NCBI RefSeq assembly: GCF_054482595.1
Contig: NZ_CM137008.1
Reading direction: 5' to 3' (one strand)
DNA: 64,000 bases
In this document: positions 4,161 through 26,721 of the stretch, in pieces
Layout of the letters: each line of letters opens with the position of its first letter
Position numbering within the stretch: the stretch's first letter is position 1
Translations under genes and position numbers: made by a program
Notes under the pieces: generated by a model
Database searches by the model: none
What the model saw: the letters and a program-made list of their open reading frames with translations, nothing else
What the model was told of the DNA's origin: nothing

Positions 4161-5010
4161 ACGTGACGCCGGGCGCGAGGCGCTGGAGAAAAAAGGCTGG
4201 TGGCGCAGTCACCGTTGGCTGGTGTTACGTCGCCTTTGTCAGTTCTTCGTGCTGGGGATGTTTTTGAGCGGTCCGTGGTTTGGTGTGTGGATCTTGCACG
4301 GCAACTACAGCAGTAGCCTGTTATTCGACACCGTTCCGCTGACCGATCCGCTGATGACGCTGCAAAGTCTTGCCAGTGGTCATCTGCCTGCCACGGTGGC
4401 GTTGACCGGTGCGGTGATTATCACCGTGCTCTACGCCCTGGCGGGAAAGCGATTATTTTGCAGCTGGGTCTGCCCGCTGAACCCGATTACCGACTTAGCG
4501 AACTGGTTACGCAGGCGCTTTGACCTCAATCAGTCTGCGACGATCCCTCGCCACATTCGCTACGTGCTGTTGGTGGTCATTCTGGTGGGATCAGCCTTAA
4601 CCGGCACGCTCATCTGGGAATGGATCAACCCCGTTTCCCTGATGGGGCGTAGCCTGGTAATGGGCTTCGGCAGCGGCGCGCTGCTTATTCTCGCGCTGTT
4701 TTTATTTGATCTACTGGTCGTTGAACACGGCTGGTGCGGGCACATTTGTCCGGTTGGCGCGCTTTATGGCGTGCTGGGTAGCAAAGGTGTGATTACCGTT
4801 GCGGCCAGCGATCGGCAGAAATGTAACCGCTGTATGGATTGTTTTCATGTTTGCCCGGAACCGCATGTGCTACGTGCCCCGGTGCTGGATGAACAAAGCC
4901 CGGTGCAGGTCACCAGCCGCGATTGCATGACGTGCGGTCGCTGCGTGGATGTCTGTTCTGAGGATGTATTTACAATAACTACACGATGGAGTTCGGGAGC
5001 GAAATCATGA
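4147..5010 (+). CDS. napH: Membrane-bound ferredoxin-type protein NapH
   Basis: 287 aa, hydrophobic N-terminal half and C-terminal Cys clusters; recognised as NapH. Confidence 0.93.
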
Positions 5011-20180: not shown

Positions 20181-20396
20181 TTAATTTTGTTCTCTGGTTG
20201 CTACTTGTTTTATTGGCCTGATGCTGTCCAGGAGCAGACGGCGGCGCATGTTTGGCGCGCCCCAACGGTAACCAGTCTTTTTGTCGTAGGATTCACAACG
20301 TCCGACAACCCAGGAGGTTTCAGTGGAATGTAATTTCATCCGCTTTTCACCGTCTCGGGTGATAACAATTCCTGTATGAGTTTTTATCACGCTCAT
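20181..20396 (-). CDS. Hypothetical small phage protein
   Basis: 71-aa ORF with GGAGA RBS 8 nt upstream; co-oriented with xis and int. Confidence 0.45.
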   Translation of the reverse strand: MSVIKTHTGIVITRDGEKRMKLHSTETSWVVGRCESYDKKTGYRWGAPNMRRRLLLDSIRPIKQVATREQN

Positions 20397-20598
20397 TTTT
20401 TATTCTCCGGTGCTTTCGGCATTACTGCCCAGTGGGTAATATTGACGTTTTCAAGGTCCCCGACCTGAAATGTCCACTGCCATTCTCCGGTTTCTTTTTG
20501 CCCCCAATGTGTACCAGAGAGAACGCCAGCCAATCAGCCAGCCTTCTCCATTAGCATCAAATAACAGAACACTTTCATGTCTGTTTTGTAAAAAGGAC

Positions 20599-20633
20599 GG
20601 TACCAGCCGGAAGCAAGGGTACAAGCTGGTACC
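20599..20633. other. Strong hairpin (9-bp perfect stem) in a structured noncoding region
   Basis: GGTACCAGC ... GCTGGTACC inverted repeat with 17-nt loop, within the GC-rich, stop-codon-dense region 20400..20920. Confidence 0.4.
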
Positions 20634-20920
20634 TCCAAGACTACACACAGCATAAAGTTGTGGTGCCGGGTGCCTCCCGGTGCCTGGCGAAGGTTGCACA
20701 CCAGGCGGGTGGGTATCCACAGAAGGTCGACTGTCAGCCTCAACCTTTACCCGCGTGCGCTGAGCCGCATTCACCACAACGCTAAGGATTCTCTCTGGTT
20801 GAAAATACTTAGCTGTTATGTGCCTGCTTTTAGCCACATCAGGCGAGGTGGACCTAGTTATTCCCCAACAACAAGGATTTGGTTATTATGTAACCCTCCC
20901 CAACAACGATAAGGATTTAT

Positions 20921-21017: not shown

Positions 21018-21512
21018 ATGACCAGAGACGATTATAAATTTTATATTCACTACTCTTATGTATTGGAGAAGATGAATTACACGTTGTTAACTCGTATTGA
21101 TAAATTAATAACGTTGATGTTAATCGTTCTCGGTTTTTCAGTTTTCGCCCCGTACAGTAATTTATTTATTTTCGGTTTGTTTGTTGCCGTACTTTCGGTT
21201 CTTCAGTTGGTCTATCAGTTCGGCCAGGAGGCTGGGATGTCTAAAGAACAAGCGAGGCATTACAAAAGACTGCTGATTGAGTCTGATACTCTTTCTGAAG
21301 ATCAGTTGCAAGCTAGGTATTTAAAAATCCAAGATACCGATAGTAATCCATGGAAATCACTTGAACGAGCGGCTTTCATTCGGGCCTGCATTTTTGCTGG
21401 TGTTCCAACTAAGTACGATCTAACAACCAAAGAAAAATTTATTGCTTGGTGTGCGGGAGATCTACCTCTAGAGAATGAACTAACGGATATTAATGATGAC
21501 CAACAAGCATAA
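21018..21512 (+). CDS. Small membrane protein with two predicted TM helices (moron; possible abortive-infection/superinfection-exclusion effector)
   Basis: 164-aa ORF; two hydrophobic segments (LITLMLIVLGFSVFAP and LFIFGLFVAVLSVLQLVY) then a charged soluble C-terminus; AT-rich; opposite strand to int/xis/cI. Confidence 0.6.
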   Translation: MTRDDYKFYIHYSYVLEKMNYTLLTRIDKLITLMLIVLGFSVFAPYSNLFIFGLFVAVLSVLQLVYQFGQEAGMSKEQARHYKRLLIESDTLSEDQLQARYLKIQDTDSNPWKSLERAAFIRACIFAGVPTKYDLTTKEKFIAWCAGDLPLENELTDINDDQQA

Positions 21513-21567
21513 TCCAGTTCACGGACATGTACCTCCGAAGCCGAAACCACCGAAACCGAAGAAATGA
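21493..21567 (+). CDS. Micro-ORF (24 aa) encoding MMTNKHNPVHGHVPPKPKPPKPKK
   Basis: Overlaps the 3' end of the 21018 gene in another frame; proline/lysine-rich C-terminus. Confidence 0.35.
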   Translation: MMTNKHNPVHGHVPPKPKPPKPKK

Positions 21568-21586
21568 GACATAATAGGATTGGATA

Positions 21587-21655
21587 ATGAGTCGACCAAT
21601 AGAGCCTTTTCATATTCCACCTCGTCCCAGGCCACCAGATCCAGGCCCAAAGTGA
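21587..21655 (+). CDS. Micro-ORF (22 aa) encoding MSRPIEPFHIPPRPRPPDPGPK
   Basis: ATG preceded by AGGA RBS; proline/arginine-rich; followed by a terminator. Confidence 0.35.
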   Translation: MSRPIEPFHIPPRPRPPDPGPK

Positions 21656-21680
21656 GGGTTACTGATTTTTAAAGAGCGAA

Positions 21681-21702
21681 GCGTCCGGTAGGGCGCTTTT
21701 TT
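21681..21702 (+). terminator. Rho-independent terminator ending the small + strand moron operon
   Basis: GCGUCCGGUAGGGCGC 6-bp stem (one G-U pair) with GGUA tetraloop, followed by UUUUUUG. Confidence 0.5.
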
Positions 21703-21818
21703 GTTGCTAACGAATCATCTTGGACTTCATATGCCCCAGGCGGCTACTTCGTGAGCGTCCTGCCTGTTTGTTGTTTCTCTTGGGTACATTATGTATCTCA
21801 AAGGTACATTGTCAAGCA

Positions 21819-21842
21819 TAAAAAAACCTGCCGAAGCAGGTT
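21819..21842 (-). terminator. Rho-independent terminator downstream of cI
   Basis: Minus-strand RNA: ACCUGCUUCGGCAGGU hairpin followed by UUUUUUU, immediately after the cI stop. Confidence 0.65.
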
Positions 21843-21854
21843 CATAAACATTGA

Positions 21855-22529
21855 TTAGGCTTTGATTTTGTATCTTCTTGGTTTTCCTGAGAAAATCACA
21901 GTACCAATTATAGAGCAATTACCGTTGATCTTAATGTAAGGCTCAGGCCAGTTTGGGTTTAACGCTTTGAGATAACGCTGTGTCCCATCTTCTATCAACC
22001 TTTTGAAGGTGGTTTCACCTGTATCGTGCATCAATGCAATAACGTCGTCACCGTGGCAGGCAGGTACTTCAGGATCGACAAAAATCATGTCTCCCGGGCG
22101 GTACTCATCAATCATTGAATCACCTATCACCCGCAAGATATAAGTCATTTCCCCACAGGGTACAGGGCAGGGATACGTTTCTGCTGTGCTCAAATCAACC
22201 TCAGAATATCCAACTTCTTTCCATGCTCCGGCCTGTACCCATGATATGACAGGGACTAATGTGATTTGTTTATTAGTGATTGAAACATCAGGTTTTTTTG
22301 TGATGTTCGTTGTCTGGTGTTCTTGATCGAGCCATCCGACAGGCAGGTCGAAACATTTTTCGATGTGTCGTGCCATGCTGTCACCGATATTTTTAGTAGC
22401 ACCATCTCCCATAAACCTGCTGGTTTGGGTTGGCTCGCGATCAATCATAGTGGCAAAGGAAGAATTCCCGCCAACACCATCTCTCAGTTTTCTGGCGTTA
22501 GACCGCCGGATGTCATGGATTGTTTTCAT
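21855..22529 (-). CDS. Phage cI-like repressor (HTH plus S24 LexA-type peptidase domain)
   Basis: 224 aa; C-terminal part carries the S24 pattern (VIGDSM ... KR, Ser/Lys dyad context); divergent from the cro-like gene. Confidence 0.8.
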   Translation of the reverse strand: MKTIHDIRRSNARKLRDGVGGNSSFATMIDREPTQTSRFMGDGATKNIGDSMARHIEKCFDLPVGWLDQEHQTTNITKKPDVSITNKQITLVPVISWVQAGAWKEVGYSEVDLSTAETYPCPVPCGEMTYILRVIGDSMIDEYRPGDMIFVDPEVPACHGDDVIALMHDTGETTFKRLIEDGTQRYLKALNPNWPEPYIKINGNCSIIGTVIFSGKPRRYKIKA

Positions 22530-22544
22530 AACGAAATTAAAACC

Positions 22545-22565
22545 CTTGTACCGTTAAGGTACAAG
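22545..22565. promoter_or_regulatory. Putative operator palindrome (CTTGTACC-GTTAA-GGTACAAG) between cI and cro
   Basis: Perfect 8-bp inverted repeat in the 90-bp divergent intergenic region; further GGTACA half-sites at about 22606 and 21781..21810. Confidence 0.5.
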
Positions 22566-22619
22566 TATCTTGAAGGTTCATTTTAATCATGTAATATGTA
22601 TACCGGAGGTACATATTGT

Positions 22620-22820
22620 ATGAAAGCGTATTGGGACTCTTTAACCAAAGAACAGCAGGGCGAGTTGGCCGGAAAAGTTGGCTCAACACCTGGCTACTTA
22701 CGGCTGGTTTTCAATGGCTATAAAAAAGCCAGTTTTGTGCTGGCTAAAAAACTTGAGCAATGCACGTCAGGTGCAATTACGAAATCTGACTTAAGACCGG
22801 ATATCTATCCGAAAGATTAG
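22620..22820 (+). CDS. Cro-like HTH transcriptional regulator
   Basis: 66-aa product from ATG with GGAGG RBS; divergent from cI; HTH-like segment ELAGKVGSTPGYLRLVFNG. Confidence 0.7.
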   Translation: MKAYWDSLTKEQQGELAGKVGSTPGYLRLVFNGYKKASFVLAKKLEQCTSGAITKSDLRPDIYPKD

Positions 22821-22851
22821 CAGAACACTTTCAATTTTTAACCACAGAACG

Positions 22852-23415
22852 ATGAGGCTAATCGTGGGTAAGCATCACTGGAAAATAGAAAAACAGCCTG
22901 AGTGGTACATGAAAGCTGTCAGAAAAACTATCGCGGCGTTGCCGGGTGGTTACGCTGAAGCCGCTGACTGGCTGGATGTAACAGAGAACGCATTATTTAA
23001 CCGCCTTCGTGCCGATGGCGATCAGATTTTCCCGCTGGGATGGGCAATGATTTTGCAACGTGCTGGTGGAACTCACTTCATTGCTGATGCTGTGGCGCAG
23101 TCTGCAAATGGCGTCTTTGTGTCTCTTCCTGACGTCGAGGATGTGGACAACGCCGATATTAACCAGCGTCTGCTGGAAGTCATTGAACAGATTGGCAGTT
23201 ATTCAAAACAGATTCGTTCAGCAATCGAAGACGGTGTAGTGGAACCGCATGAGAAGACAGCAATTAATGACGAGCTGTACCTCTCAATTTCGAAGCTGCA
23301 GGAGCATGCAGCACTGGTCTACAAAATTTTTTGCATTTCAGAAAGTAATGACGCCCGCGAGTGTGCAGCTCCGGGCGCCGTGGCGTGTCGTGACTGTGGA
23401 GAAACTAACGCATGA
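22852..23415 (+). CDS. Phage early regulatory protein (CII-like position; family uncertain)
   Basis: 187-aa ORF immediately after cro, coupled (ATGA) to the next ORF; possible GTG start at 22864 with GAGG RBS. Confidence 0.45.
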
Positions 23416-24701: not shown

Positions 24702-25192
24702 TCATGAGTCTTTTGAATGACGTTCAGAAATTCATTGAAGCCCATCCGGGGTGTACTTCCGGAGACATTGCGGATGCTTTTGCTGGTTACTCACGGCAGC
24801 GCGTTCTGCAGTCAGCAAGCAAGTTACGTCAGAGTGGGCGTGTGGCTCACCGTTGTGAAGGGGATACACGCAGACATTTCCCGCGCCTGACTGAGAGAGC
24901 GCAGGAACTGGAACCACAACCAGTTCGAGAAACCAGATCTGTGCGCAATTTCTATGTCGGCACTAACGATCCCCGGGTGATTTTGTGCCTGACCCGCCAG
25001 GCTGAAAAACTGGAGTCCAGGGGCTTATACCGTCGTGCTGCAACGGTGTGGATGGCGGCATTCCGTGAAAGCCACTCCCAGCCAGAACGAAACAATTTTC
25101 TGGCGCGTCGTGAGCAGTGTTTACGGAAAAGCAGCAAGCGCGCTGTATCGAGTGATGAGTGGTATCTGTCAGGGAATTACGTGGGGGCGTAA
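24698..25192 (+). CDS. Hypothetical phage protein, possibly PerC/Pch-like regulator
   Basis: 164 aa; motif AEKLESRGLYRRAATVWMAA resembles the PerC-family signature as I recall it; low certainty. Confidence 0.4.
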   Translation: MIMSLLNDVQKFIEAHPGCTSGDIADAFAGYSRQRVLQSASKLRQSGRVAHRCEGDTRRHFPRLTERAQELEPQPVRETRSVRNFYVGTNDPRVILCLTRQAEKLESRGLYRRAATVWMAAFRESHSQPERNNFLARREQCLRKSSKRAVSSDEWYLSGNYVGA

Positions 25193-25518
25193 TGACGACG
25201 TTAACTCAATGCCAGCAGCAGGTGCTGGATATGCTGATTTCTTATCAGAAAGAGCGTGGCTTTCCGCCAACCAATCAGGAGGTGGCAACCATGCTGGGAT
25301 ACCGTTCAGTGAATGCAGCGGTAGAGCATCTTCGCGCACTGGAGAAAAAAGGCGTCATCACGATAAAGCGTGGCGTGGCCCGGGGGATAACGCTTCATAC
25401 CGCGGTGAAGGACGACGACAGCGAGGCGGTCGGGATTATCCGCGCACTGCTTGCCGGTGAGGAAAACGCAAGGCTGCGTGCAACCCACTGGTTACATGAG
25501 AGGGGCCTGAAAGTATGA
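25192..25518 (+). CDS. LexA N-terminal DNA-binding-domain-like protein (no S24 peptidase domain)
   Basis: MTTLTQCQQQVLDMLISYQKERGFPPTNQEVATMLGYRSVNAAVEHLRALEKKGVI parallels the LexA N-terminal winged helix (MKALTARQQEV...[26 protein letters not shown]); only about 108 aa. Confidence 0.65.
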   Translation: MTTLTQCQQQVLDMLISYQKERGFPPTNQEVATMLGYRSVNAAVEHLRALEKKGVITIKRGVARGITLHTAVKDDDSEAVGIIRALLAGEENARLRATHWLHERGLKV

Positions 25519-25923: not shown

Positions 25924-26721
25924 ATGAATAATCTGATGGTCATTGATGGTATTGAAGTTCGTCGTGATGCTTATGGGCGTTACAGCCTGAACGATCTGCA
26001 CAGGGCTGCCGGTTCTCTGGATAAGCATAAGCCTGCATTCTGGCTCCGCAATGAGCAAACTGAACGTTTAATAAGCGAGTTGCAGATTTGCAACTCGGTC
26101 AATATAGAGCCAGTTAACGTTATTCGCGGCGGAAATAATCAGGGGACGTATGTCTGTAAGGAACTGGTGTATGCCTATGCAATGTGGATCAGCCCGTCAT
26201 TCCATCTGAAGGTGATCCGTACTTTCGACATGGTAACCAGCGCACCGGAAAAATTATCCGGACAGGCTGCTGACAAGATGCAGGCTGGAGTGATTCTGCT
26301 GGACTTTATGCGTCGGGAGTTAAACCTGTCTAACTCATCTGTGCTTGGGGCCTGTCAAAAACTCCAGGAGGCTGTTGGCTTACCGAATCTGGCACCGCGC
26401 TATGCCATTGATGCTCCTGCTGATGCACACGATGGCTCAAGTCGCCCCACGCTGTCGCTGAGTGCACTGCTGAAGCAGTATGGTATCCGCCTGACGGCTA
26501 ATCAGGCATATCACCAGATGGTGAAGCTGGGGATCGTTGAACAACGCGAACGATACAGCCGTACCGCGATTAACAACATCAAAAAATTCTGGTCGCTGAC
26601 AGCGAAAGGCTGCATGTTCGGCAAGAACATCACCAGTCCCGCAAATCCGCGCGAGACGCAGCCGCATTTCTTCGAATCCCGATTCCCTGAGCTGTTAAAG
26701 CTGCTCGATACCGTTCATTGA
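25924..26721 (+). CDS. KilA-N domain-containing protein (putative antirepressor-like)
   Basis: Start set at MNNLMVIDG; N-terminal region has KilA-N character (YSLNDLHRAAG ... TYVCKELVYAYAMWISPSFHLKVI). Confidence 0.6.
   Translation: MNNLMVIDGIEVRRDAYGRYSLNDLHRAAGSLDKHKPAFWLRNEQTERLISELQICNSVNIEPVNVIRGGNNQGTYVCKELVYAYAMWISPSFHLKVIRTFDMVTSAPEKLSGQAADKMQAGVILLDFMRRELNLSNSSVLGACQKLQEAVGLPNLAPRYAIDAPADAHDGSSRPTLSLSALLKQYGIRLTANQAYHQMVKLGIVEQRERYSRTAINNIKKFWSLTAKGCMFGKNITSPANPRETQPHFFESRFPELLKLLDTVH

Follow-up and report, generated by a model that had tools for sequence, protein, structure and literature searches.

Organisation of the immunity region

The window analysed here is a stretch of 64,000 nt of NZ_CM137008.1 (assembly GCF_054482595.1), given as one strand, 5′ to 3′. 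On the minus strand, at 21855-22529, it carries a gene for a cI-type repressor of 224 amino acids, known in e14 as YmfK/CohE and in SfV and SfIV as cI (99.6-100% identical). The repressor combines an XRE-type HTH, at its N-terminus, with a C-terminal Peptidase_S24 domain (Pfam, 1.5e-26), and a VQAG cleavage motif is present in its sequence. The best PDB match of the C-terminal domain is the corresponding domain of lambda cI (E = 2e-9). The N-terminal domain was modelled with a pLDDT of 90.7; its fold matches those of XRE, 434 and P22 HTH domains, and its recognition helix is predicted to comprise residues 33-40.

Judging from the model, the solved structure closest to this N-terminal domain is that of Rep from the Salmonella phage SPC32H (PDB 5d50; 36% identity, TM-score 0.83). 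Operator data for Rep were set aside, as the recognition helix of this protein differs (RSQNLVNRW vs EPTQTSRF). The two proteins also differ in their mode of inactivation: the title of the Rep-Ant complex entry (5d50) and the discussion in PMC9638917 indicate that Rep is inactivated by an antirepressor, whereas the repressor of the window has an S24 self-cleavage domain instead.

Divergently from cI, on the plus strand at 22620-22820, sequence and domain searches identified a cro-like gene (YmfT/CroE), which encodes a YdaS-type HTH protein of 66 amino acids. At the other end of cI, the scan detected an intrinsic terminator of the cI transcript (21824-21843, minus strand), and a terminator is annotated in SfV and Ayreon. 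This terminator separates cI from the leftward early promoter PL and from the operator cluster OL, both described below.

SfV, SfIV and e14 have the same module as their immunity region, with 98-99% identity over the DNA of 21650-22900. Because of mosaicism, the flanks are not those of SfV and e14: to the left of 21706-21772, ymfJ or orf33 is replaced in the window by a plus-strand module. In the GenBank record of SfV, a “putative operator region” is annotated at 26377..26445, which corresponds to 22546-22614 of the window. The same record is without an OL annotation, and individual sites are unannotated in all the records examined.

A 17-bp dyad is present five times around cI

The original prediction was that repeated copies of GGTACA(T) on either side of cI are candidate operators. 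The repeated motifs flanking cI are real. The palindrome CTTGTACC-GTTAA-GGTACAAG is found at 22545-22565, as a perfect 8+5+8 arrangement, and the GGTACATATTGTA element described in the cI/cro divergent region is found at 22608-22620. The two GGTACATT copies announced just past the cI terminator are at 21783-21790 and 21803-21810. What had to be corrected is the repeat unit itself. A repeat search of the window showed that GGTACA is the right half of a 17-bp site with two-fold symmetry, TGTAYC-N5-GGTACA, which is present five times around the repressor gene of this e14/SfV-type prophage. The left half-sites had gone unnoticed, as had one weak site (OR-B, 22564-22580). Nor had it been noticed that, in the OL copies, the ATT after GGTACA is part of the PL hexamers (-10 and -35).

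Two of the five candidate operators, which are symmetric sites and have no strand, form the OL cluster. OL2 (21772-21788, TGTTTC-TCTTG-GGTACA) has 2 mismatches to the perfect palindrome and OL1 (21792-21808, TGTATC-TCAAA-GGTACA) has 1; they are 20 bp apart, start to start. OR-A, OR-B and OR-C are all inside the 90-bp gap between cI and cro, at start-to-start spacings of 17 and 33 bp. OR-A (22547-22563, TGTACC-GTTAA-GGTACA) is a perfect dyad, placed at -18 to -34 from the cI ATG and start site, and 755 bp away from OL1. OR-B (AGTATC-TTGAA-GGTTCA), which abuts OR-A, is the weak site of the set, with 2 mismatches to the degenerate consensus over the five sites, TGTAYC-N5-GRTACA, and 3 mismatches to the perfect palindrome. 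The last site, OR-C (22597-22613), reads TGTATA-CCGGA-GGTACA.

The dyads are more clustered than in simulated sequences

Short words, or hexamer enrichment alone, are weak evidence for operators. GGTACA was observed 37 times in the window for 20.7 expected, and GGTACAT 10 times for 5.3 expected, a number that was reached in 5 of 100 shuffles. The enrichment in GGTACAT is therefore not significant, and were it the only evidence, the repeats could be read as chance copies of a common hexamer. The 17-bp dyad leads to another conclusion. A scan was carried out with an a priori motif, the perfect palindrome TGTACC-N5-GGTACA, allowing at most 2 mismatches. Exactly 5 matches were obtained in the 64-kb window, all of them within 21772-22613: four are OL2, OL1, OR-A and OR-C, and the fifth is a coding-constrained match within the cI gene (22148-22164). 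First-order Markov simulations produced on average 1.55 matches per 64 kb, and at most 2 of them in any 850 bp, whereas the dyad of the window is confined to an 842-bp region. When the scan was made with TGTAYC-N5-GGTACA and at most 1 mismatch, four loci only were found in the window, namely OL2, OL1, OR-A and OR-C. This clustering, together with the contrast between half-site and spacer variation and the recurrence of the dyad in distant relatives (see below), refutes the chance reading, to which we give practically no weight.

Some matches were not counted as operators. The one at 22148-22164 (2 mismatches) is coding sequence inside cI; save for this near-match, the dyad sites are restricted to the two non-coding stretches flanking cI. 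Lone half-sites at 21527 and 22904 are in coding sequence or without a partner half-site. The 15-mer ATGGATTGTTTTCAT has one further exact copy, at 4834, inside a ferredoxin-type gene, presumably napH from its sequence; this copy was considered a coincidence.

The dyads lie on the early promoters

The 17-bp dyads are on top of three early promoters, PL, PRM and a putative PR. PL (21788-21815, minus strand) has a -35 box TTGACA (21815..21810) and a -10 box CATAAT (21793..21788), separated by a 16-nt spacer. It matched the consensus at 11 of 12 positions in the promoter scan and is conserved in all relatives, and in the Ayreon record a promoter is annotated at the equivalent position. OL1 fills the spacer between the two boxes, and OL2 spans the last base of the -10 box and the predicted start site (~21781). 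Repressor bound at OL1 and OL2, whose centres are 20 bp apart, or about two helical turns, would shut the leftward arm towards xis and int. The mosaic breakpoints at 21758-21772 fall at the outer edge of OL2 (left edge at 21772), as expected if OL bounds the immunity module.

The DNA to the left of PL suggests another possibility, namely that the OL sites are real but vestigial in this prophage, and that PL drives no useful operon, a convergent plus-strand module and frameshifted genes being placed before xis-int. In e14 and SfV, a leftward ORF begins within ~100 nt after PL (ymfJ starts 101 nt downstream in e14, and orf33 99 nt downstream in SfV). Here PL faces a convergent plus-strand module (21018-21700) and pseudogenes; a RefSeq genome that is 100% identical contains, left of PL, two frameshifted pseudogenes as well as a plus-strand hypothetical gene, which has a terminator of its own (21678-21699). 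The left arm may thus be partly decayed. However, the hexamers of PL and both OL operators are intact, as are the int and xis ORFs, and in PhiR29_1, whose genome was deposited as that of a complete phage, a plus-strand gene at this same position likewise separates PL from the leftward genes. We consider it unlikely that OL is vestigial, and keep OL1 and OL2 as the probable operators of PL.

The maintenance promoter PRM (22536-22564, minus strand) has a -35 box TTGTAC (22564..22559), a 17-nt spacer and a -10 box TTTAAT (22541..22536). The ymfK mRNA of e14 is leaderless (PMC4681348, Fig. 2E). Because the e14 sequence is identical at the PRM region, we placed the PRM start site, from these e14 data, at the A of the cI ATG (22529), which would make the cI mRNA leaderless as well. 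OR-A covers the -35 box and the spacer of PRM, and therefore negative autoregulation is to be expected when the repressor occupies this site.

A palindrome at such a place could also be a hairpin, in RNA or DNA, rather than a protein site, for example an intrinsic terminator on the minus strand, upstream of cI. The palindrome at 22545-22565 does appear terminator-like on this strand in the scan, with an 8-bp stem, of which 4 pairs are GC, closed by a 5-nt loop and followed by the tail GGTTTTAATT. The variation pattern of OR-A (see below) is, moreover, also what a hairpin with a constant stem and a changing loop would produce. Against this, the palindrome is located between the -35 and -10 boxes of PRM, and so outside the leaderless cI transcript, and a terminator there would stop upstream leftward transcripts reaching cI. 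Its half-sites recur at four other places, as imperfect dyads without T-tail, and no compensatory stem changes were seen in the palindrome. Finally, across genera, the motif changes together with a protein helix, which does not suit a hairpin. We regard the hairpin as extremely unlikely and treat OR-A as a candidate operator.

A putative rightward early promoter PR is proposed at 22570-22597 (plus strand), with a -35 box TTGAAG (22570-22575), a 16-nt spacer and a -10 box TAATAT (22592-22597); its predicted start is at ~22604. It matches the consensus at 8 of 12 positions, below the threshold of the scan, and was therefore not called. Its geometry backs the proposal: the last T of the -10 box is the first base of an operator, exactly as at PL. 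The TTG within the OR-B spacer is conserved across relatives, and was counted as further support for PR; since the OR-B spacer plus one base make up the putative -35 box, the conservation of OR-B is inseparable from that of the box. The start site of PR and the Shine-Dalgarno sequence of cro (GGAGG, 22605-22609) are both under OR-C. As for PRM, the centre of OR-B is at -43 from its start site, and activation from OR-B may be envisaged.

Half-sites are conserved and change with the recognition helix

The variation of the sites was then compared across 88 related loci. Columns polymorphic in at least 2 haplotypes were 3 of 60 in the half-sites and 14 of 25 in the spacers (Fisher p = 5e-7, with haplotype counts that are not independent events). 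Two of the three common half-site changes are on the degenerate Y/R position. In OL1, half-sites are nearly invariant and four of the five spacer columns are polymorphic, each in 5-12 haplotypes. In OL2, the right half is either GGTACA or GATACA, and the spacer is variable (38 haplotypes). The half-sites of OR-A are invariant save for one singleton, around the spacer variants GTTAA, GATAA, GATAG and GTAAA. OR-C has a constant right half and a left half that changes at the Y position only, and bases 1-2 of its spacer vary. Compared to SfV and e14, the operator sequences are identical or differ in spacers only.

A homologue search with the N-terminal domain gave fragments for the most part. Among its hits, L089 is a frameshifted copy of the same module, and L090 comes from an error-prone assembly, so that its spacer lengths of 4, 6 and 7 bp are untrustworthy; its half-sites are nonetheless conserved at ~20% DNA divergence.

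The helix I(D/N)REPTQxSR is present in 24 unique locus types, including those of Pseudomonas phages, and in every one of them 2-3 of the dyad sites lie upstream of the repressor. In contrast, TGTAYC-type sites were found in none of the 7 locus types in which the helix is changed to (M)(E/S)NSQVSQ. Two of these changed-helix types were analysed by repeat search, and a different inverted repeat, TTTATC/GATAAA, was found (TTTATCTTTT in L148).

The position of the sites is conserved as well. All the relatives that keep the helix have a site over the Shine-Dalgarno sequence of the cro-like gene, equivalent to OR-C, and several of them, Pseudomonas phages included, have a site at -34 to -18 from the repressor ATG, as OR-A. 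A weak site with a TTGNN spacer (lytic strand) is found beside the strong, repressor-proximal site, and abuts it in the Pseudomonas phages. In the latter group (vB_Pae_BR201a, LPPA33 and IMG/VR contigs), the N-terminal domains of the repressors are 44-73% identical to that of the window cI and have the same recognition helix, and the modules have the same TGTACC-N5-GGTACA half-sites in the same layout, with a cro-SD site, a weak TTGNN site and a strong repressor-proximal site. They differ by their host genus, by a more divergent S24 domain, and by a 1-nt overlap in the site pair, which gives 16 bp start to start instead of 17 bp here. In one locus of this group (L091), no OL-type sites were found within 1.5 kb downstream of the repressor.

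Such a motif is not assignable to one protein from sequence alone, because Cro and the N-terminal domain of cI occur together in every relative examined, the Pseudomonas phages included, where a Cro homologue (33% identical) occupies the equivalent divergent position. It might be that Cro (YmfT/CroE) alone recognises the sites and that the cI-type repressor binds a different sequence, a situation which the co-variation cannot separate from the preferred one. However, to our knowledge, cI and Cro use the same operators in all characterised lambdoid switches (lambda, 434, P22), and the repeat search revealed no other repeated dyad in the two control regions. Furthermore, the motif changes in step with a segment of the repressor itself, its predicted recognition helix. 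We hold recognition by Cro alone to be very unlikely; probably, the five sites are bound by Cro in addition to the repressor.

A probable lambdoid switch and its departures from lambda

We conclude that the five 17-bp dyads are the operators of the cI-type repressor (YmfK/CohE) in a lambdoid immunity region of the e14/SfV type, with a probability of about 0.88. The candidate-operator reading of the original prediction is supported by the presence of dyad-symmetric 17-mers on promoters, by the conservation of half-sites, and by the co-variation of the motif with the recognition helix. Which protein binds which site is inferred, as are the relative affinities and any cooperativity; looping between OL and OR through repressor octamers may also occur. 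In the SOS response, RecA-stimulated self-cleavage at VQAG would release all three promoters. The literature searched, which did not extend to the SfV 2002 and e14 2004 genome papers, yielded neither footprints, EMSA or ChIP results nor operator mutants for YmfK/CohE, SfV cI or the literal motif. In K-12, the “YmfT iModulon” comprises the left-arm genes ymfJ, ymfH, xisE and intE, right-arm genes, and the SOS genes sulA and recN (PMC12133099, Table 1), and this content fits a single repressor controlling both arms.

A lambda-like layout of OR and OL had also been proposed. The clusters do flank cI as in lambda, but the number of sites and their spacing differ. The likeness is found in the 17-bp dyad operators, in the cluster placed between divergent cI and cro, over PR and PRM, and in the second cluster on PL, at the far side of cI. 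It extends to the HTH + S24 repressor, with a C-terminal domain most similar to that of lambda, and to the leaderless cI mRNA, known here from the e14 data. OR-B, centred ~43 bp upstream of the PRM start, has a position comparable to that of OR2 in lambda. On the other hand, lambda has three sites per operator, ~23-24 bp apart, the strongest being on PR or PL, whereas OL has here two sites, not three, and the OR spacings are 17 (abutting) and 33 bp. OL is ~50 bp past the cI stop codon, without rexAB or an N gene, Cro belongs to the YdaS type of HTH proteins and not to the lambda Cro fold, and the N-terminal domain of cI is not detectably lambda-like in sequence. The best consensus match is on PRM and not on PR. 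This site, OR-A, is thus on the repressor's own promoter, the reverse of the affinity order in lambda, so that the regulatory logic may not be that of lambda.

It is possible, though in our view rather doubtful, that in this repressor family, from E. coli to Pseudomonas, the switch is wired differently from that of lambda, with a strong PRM site abutting a weak site on the lytic -35 box. With 16-17 bp between centres, dimers on OR-A and OR-B would not share one face of the helix. A tetramer might recognise both sites, as has been proposed for SPC32H Rep, which is reported to bind adjacent palindromic sites in this form (PMC9638917, discussion). Under such a wiring, negative autoregulation would be dominant, and the variable, non-contacted spacers would tune affinity.

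The immunity region is carried by ~1,322 of 5,426 complete E. coli genomes, about a quarter of them. Among its carriers are K-12 (prophage e14), Shigella serotype-converting phages, and phages with Stx2c and Cdt toxins. The sites are an ordinary example of a well-known type of switch, and they leave the general picture of lambdoid switches unchanged. Given an explicit operator consensus and a promoter map, the e14 regulon inducible by SOS (ymfJ-intE, plus ymfT-ymfM with SfiC, a division inhibitor) would become directly testable. The consensus and the map would also aid the prediction of superinfection immunity groups and account for the co-regulation observed in K-12 transcriptome modules.

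Five copies of a 17-bp dyad around cI

The repeat search aligned five 17-mer copies in register (family D1). Two, OL2 (TGTTTC-TCTTG-GGTACA, 21772-21788) and OL1 (TGTATC-TCAAA-GGTACA, 21792-21808), lie beyond the 3′ end of cI, a 224-aa minus-strand ORF (21855-22529). The other three, OR-A (TGTACC-GTTAA-GGTACA, 22547-22563), OR-B (AGTATC-TTGAA-GGTTCA, 22564-22580) and OR-C (TGTATA-CCGGA-GGTACA, 22597-22613), lie between cI and the divergent cro. This alignment makes GGTACA the right half of a dyad, TGTAYC-N5-GRTACA. The elements that the original prediction had read as candidate operators, arranged like those of lambda, were all recovered: the perfect palindrome CTTGTACC-GTTAA-GGTACAAG at 22545-22565, the further GGTACATATTGTA element of the cI/cro divergent region at 22608-22620, and the two GGTACATT copies (21783-21790 and 21803-21810), just beyond the minus-strand terminator found 3′ of cI (21843..21824).

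The short words alone make weak statistics: GGTACAT was found 10 times in the window versus 5.3 expected, a count reached in 5 of 100 shuffles, and GGTACA 37 times versus 20.7. With at most one mismatch, TGTAYC-N5-GGTACA matched only OL2, OL1, OR-A and OR-C in the 64-kb window. For a clustering test, the perfect palindrome was taken as an a priori motif, with up to two mismatches, against first-order Markov simulations. Five matches were found in the window, all within 21772-22613, including one inside cI (22148-22164). The simulations averaged 1.55 matches per 64 kb, and no 850-bp stretch in them held more than 2. As the observed clustering is beyond anything simulated, chance occurrence is excluded.

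The match inside cI, TTTCCC-CACAG-GGTACA, has two mismatches, and the same coding sequence holds a 9-bp inverted repeat that includes GGTACA (22158-22166 / 22232-22240). Both coincide with codons for ...PVPCGE... and WVQAG, and were rejected as operators, coding constraint being the probable cause. Also discarded, as an apparent coincidence, was a second exact copy of the 15-mer ATGGATTGTTTTCAT of the cI start region (22515-22529), at 4834-4848 in a ferredoxin-type gene, apparently napH judging from its CMDCFH codons.

The scan listed the OR-A palindrome as terminator-like, but a hairpin or terminator role is very unlikely, given its unsuitable position and the four other copies, which do not form hairpins. 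OR-C is nested in a longer imperfect palindrome (I5, 22587-22623, TCATGTAATATGTA / TACATATTGTATGA, 86% complementary), so that symmetry reaches about 37 bp; its flanks are polymorphic among relatives.

Position of the sites relative to promoters

The promoter scan called the leftward early promoter PL at 21815..21788 on the minus strand (TTGACA-16-CATAAT, 11 of 12 consensus matches). OL1 fills its spacer, the first base of OL2 is the last T of its -10, and OL2 spans the predicted start site (~21781). From this point, the ymfJ ATG is 101 nt downstream in the K-12 prophage e14, and orf33 99 nt downstream in phage SfV. The record of phage Ayreon has a minus-strand promoter annotated directly after the cI terminator.

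The e14 mRNA of ymfK, the cI counterpart, is leaderless (PMC4681348, Fig. 2E), and e14 and the window are identical at the maintenance promoter PRM, whose start site is therefore placed at the A of the cI ATG (22529). This gives a minus-strand -10 TTTAAT at 22541..22536 and a weak -35 TTGTAC at 22564..22559; OR-A consequently spans -18 to -34, and OR-B is centred at -43. The rightward early promoter PR was not called by the scan. We infer it on the plus strand, with -35 TTGAAG (22570-22575), 16 nt, and -10 TAATAT (22592-22597), 8 of 12 matches. Two features support this placement: OR-C starts at the final T of the -10, as OL2 does at PL, and in all relatives examined the lytic-strand sequence of the OR-B spacer is TTGNN. 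OR-C also overlaps the cro SD (GGAGG, 22605-22609).

Most likely, a repressor dimer binds all five dyads. At PL, OL1 and OL2, with centres 20 bp apart and on the same helix face, would block RNA polymerase; at PR, OR-C would block the start site and the SD, and OR-B the -35. OR-A, over the PRM core, would mediate autorepression. Lambda cI bound at OR2 activates PRM, and OR-B at -43 would sit at that activating position. Unlike in lambda, OR-A directly adjoins OR-B, their centres being 17 bp apart. That OR-A, the best match to the consensus, lies on PRM could mean either that negative autoregulation dominates or that non-contacted spacers set affinity. Spacers are AT-rich in OR-A, OR-B and OL1, and GC-rich in OR-C.

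The repressor has a Peptidase_S24 domain and a VQAG cleavage motif, and among PDB sequences the lambda cI C-terminal domain matches it best. Both arms would be derepressed by SOS-induced self-cleavage. The K-12 'YmfT iModulon', which groups ymfJ-ymfH-xisE-intE, ymfT-ymfL-ymfM, sulA and recN (PMC12133099, Table 1), is in line with this. So is the long-known SfiC phenotype of e14, which is SOS-inducible and attributed to control by a CI-like repressor, not LexA (bioRxiv 10.1101/2020.11.19.390815).

Half-sites are conserved and spacers variable

Loci from 80 IMG/VR contigs, from E. coli genomes and from one frameshifted NCBI assembly were compared together with those of the window, SfV, Ayreon, e14 and PhiR29_1; these 88 loci gave 33 OR and 38 OL haplotypes. 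Columns with a variant in at least two haplotypes, counted as polymorphic, were 3 of 60 in half-sites, 14 of 25 in spacers and 9 of 68 elsewhere in the intergenic regions. Half-sites are less variable than spacers (Fisher p = 5e-7), and spacers more variable than other intergenic columns (p = 7e-5), although shared ancestry of the haplotypes makes both p values overstate independence. The pattern is unambiguous on inspection. Three half-site polymorphisms are common, and two of them affect the degenerate position that is symmetric between the half-sites (TGTAYC / GRTACA). Polymorphic spacer stretches are 21778-21782, 21798-21802, 22553-22557 and 22603-22604. High spacer polymorphism could reflect a lack of constraint within a dense control region, or affinity tuning via non-contacted bases. 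Homology to different phage groups ends where OL2 has its outer edge (21758-21772), which fits OL bounding an exchangeable immunity module.

The motif co-varies with the predicted recognition helix

By tblastn, Pseudomonas phage repressors match the window cI over the first ~70 residues only (44-59% identity). Their repressor-cro gap carries TGTACC-TCCTG-GGTACA, TGTACC-GTCAA-GGTTCT and TGTACA-TTTCT-GGTACA, the last two overlapping by 1 nt. An IMG/VR scan with this N-terminal domain gave 63 loci, reduced to 31 unique types. In all 24 types with the helix I(D/N)REPTQxSR, the 170 nt upstream of the repressor contain 2-3 such sites; none were found in the 7 types with (M)(E/S)NSQVSQ. Two of the latter, L148 and L154, were run through the repeat search and have a different inverted repeat, TTTATC/GATAAA (TTTATCTTTT/AAAGATAAA in L148). 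Among individual loci, the same half-sites and three-site layout occur in L091 (1416-1483), L092 and L093-L147 (upstream of position 601), and are absent from the changed-helix relatives L148-L154.

An AlphaFold model of the cI N-terminal domain (pLDDT 90.7) has helices at 4-19, 22-28, 33-40 and 50-59. Its best fold match is the SPC32H Rep N-terminal domain (36% identity, TM 0.83), followed by 434, P22, lambda and C-protein XRE HTH domains. In this model, the predicted recognition helix (33-40) is the segment that changes with the motif. The layout is also kept across relatives: one site lies on the cro SD, a weak one holds the -35 in its spacer, and a strong one is repressor-proximal, at -34 to -18 from the repressor start in the Pseudomonas phages as well as in several other relatives.

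Cro is a YdaS-type HTH protein, and the divergent gene in Pseudomonas encodes a homologue of it with 33% identity. The motif thus follows the cI N-terminal domain and Cro jointly, and sequence alone assigns it to the cI/Cro pair, not to one protein. Binding by Cro only is unlikely.

A widespread immunity module

The 1.25 kb around the sites is 98-99% identical to Shigella phages SfV and SfIV, E. coli phages PhiR29 and PhiR49, and e14 (ymfK/cohE, ymfT/croE, ymfL), and ~95-96% identical to Stx2c-converting phages, the Cdt phage (cdtI), Ayreon and 2H10. Most of it is present in 1,322 of 5,426 complete E. coli genomes. The gene after cro (YmfL-like, 22852-23415) matches Pfam Phage_CP76 (E = 1.8e-13), the CII regulator family of phage 186, so a CII-activated leftward establishment promoter may exist in or near cro. 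Further along the rightward early operon, 25159-25518 encodes a 119-aa 'LexA family transcriptional regulator', by its length apparently just the LexA-like N-terminal DNA-binding part; it also occurs in PhiR29_1, as 'similar to LexA'.

Between PL and xis-int lie frameshifted genes and a convergent plus-strand module (21018-21700) with its own terminator (21678-21699), which looks like a moron-type insertion. It holds a small ORF and a 164-aa ORF (91 aa in RefSeq) for which no Pfam match was found. A different plus-strand gene occupies the corresponding place in PhiR29_1, which was deposited as a complete phage genome. Two frameshifted partial hypothetical genes are annotated by RefSeq at ~20393-20777 (minus strand) in a 100%-identical genome, L087; the left arm may therefore be partly decayed in this prophage.

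The SfV GenBank 'putative operator region' (26377..26445) corresponds exactly to window 22546-22614, OR-A through OR-C, and this tag dates from deposition of the SfV genome. In the literature covered by our search, no site-level or experimental description of these operators was found. The sites are best regarded as a putative lambdoid operator set of distinct specificity, in a very common, already sequenced immunity module. What may be new, all within a well-known kind, is the 17-bp consensus, the pair of OL sites on PL, the use of spacer variability as evidence and the cross-genus co-variation of helix and motif.
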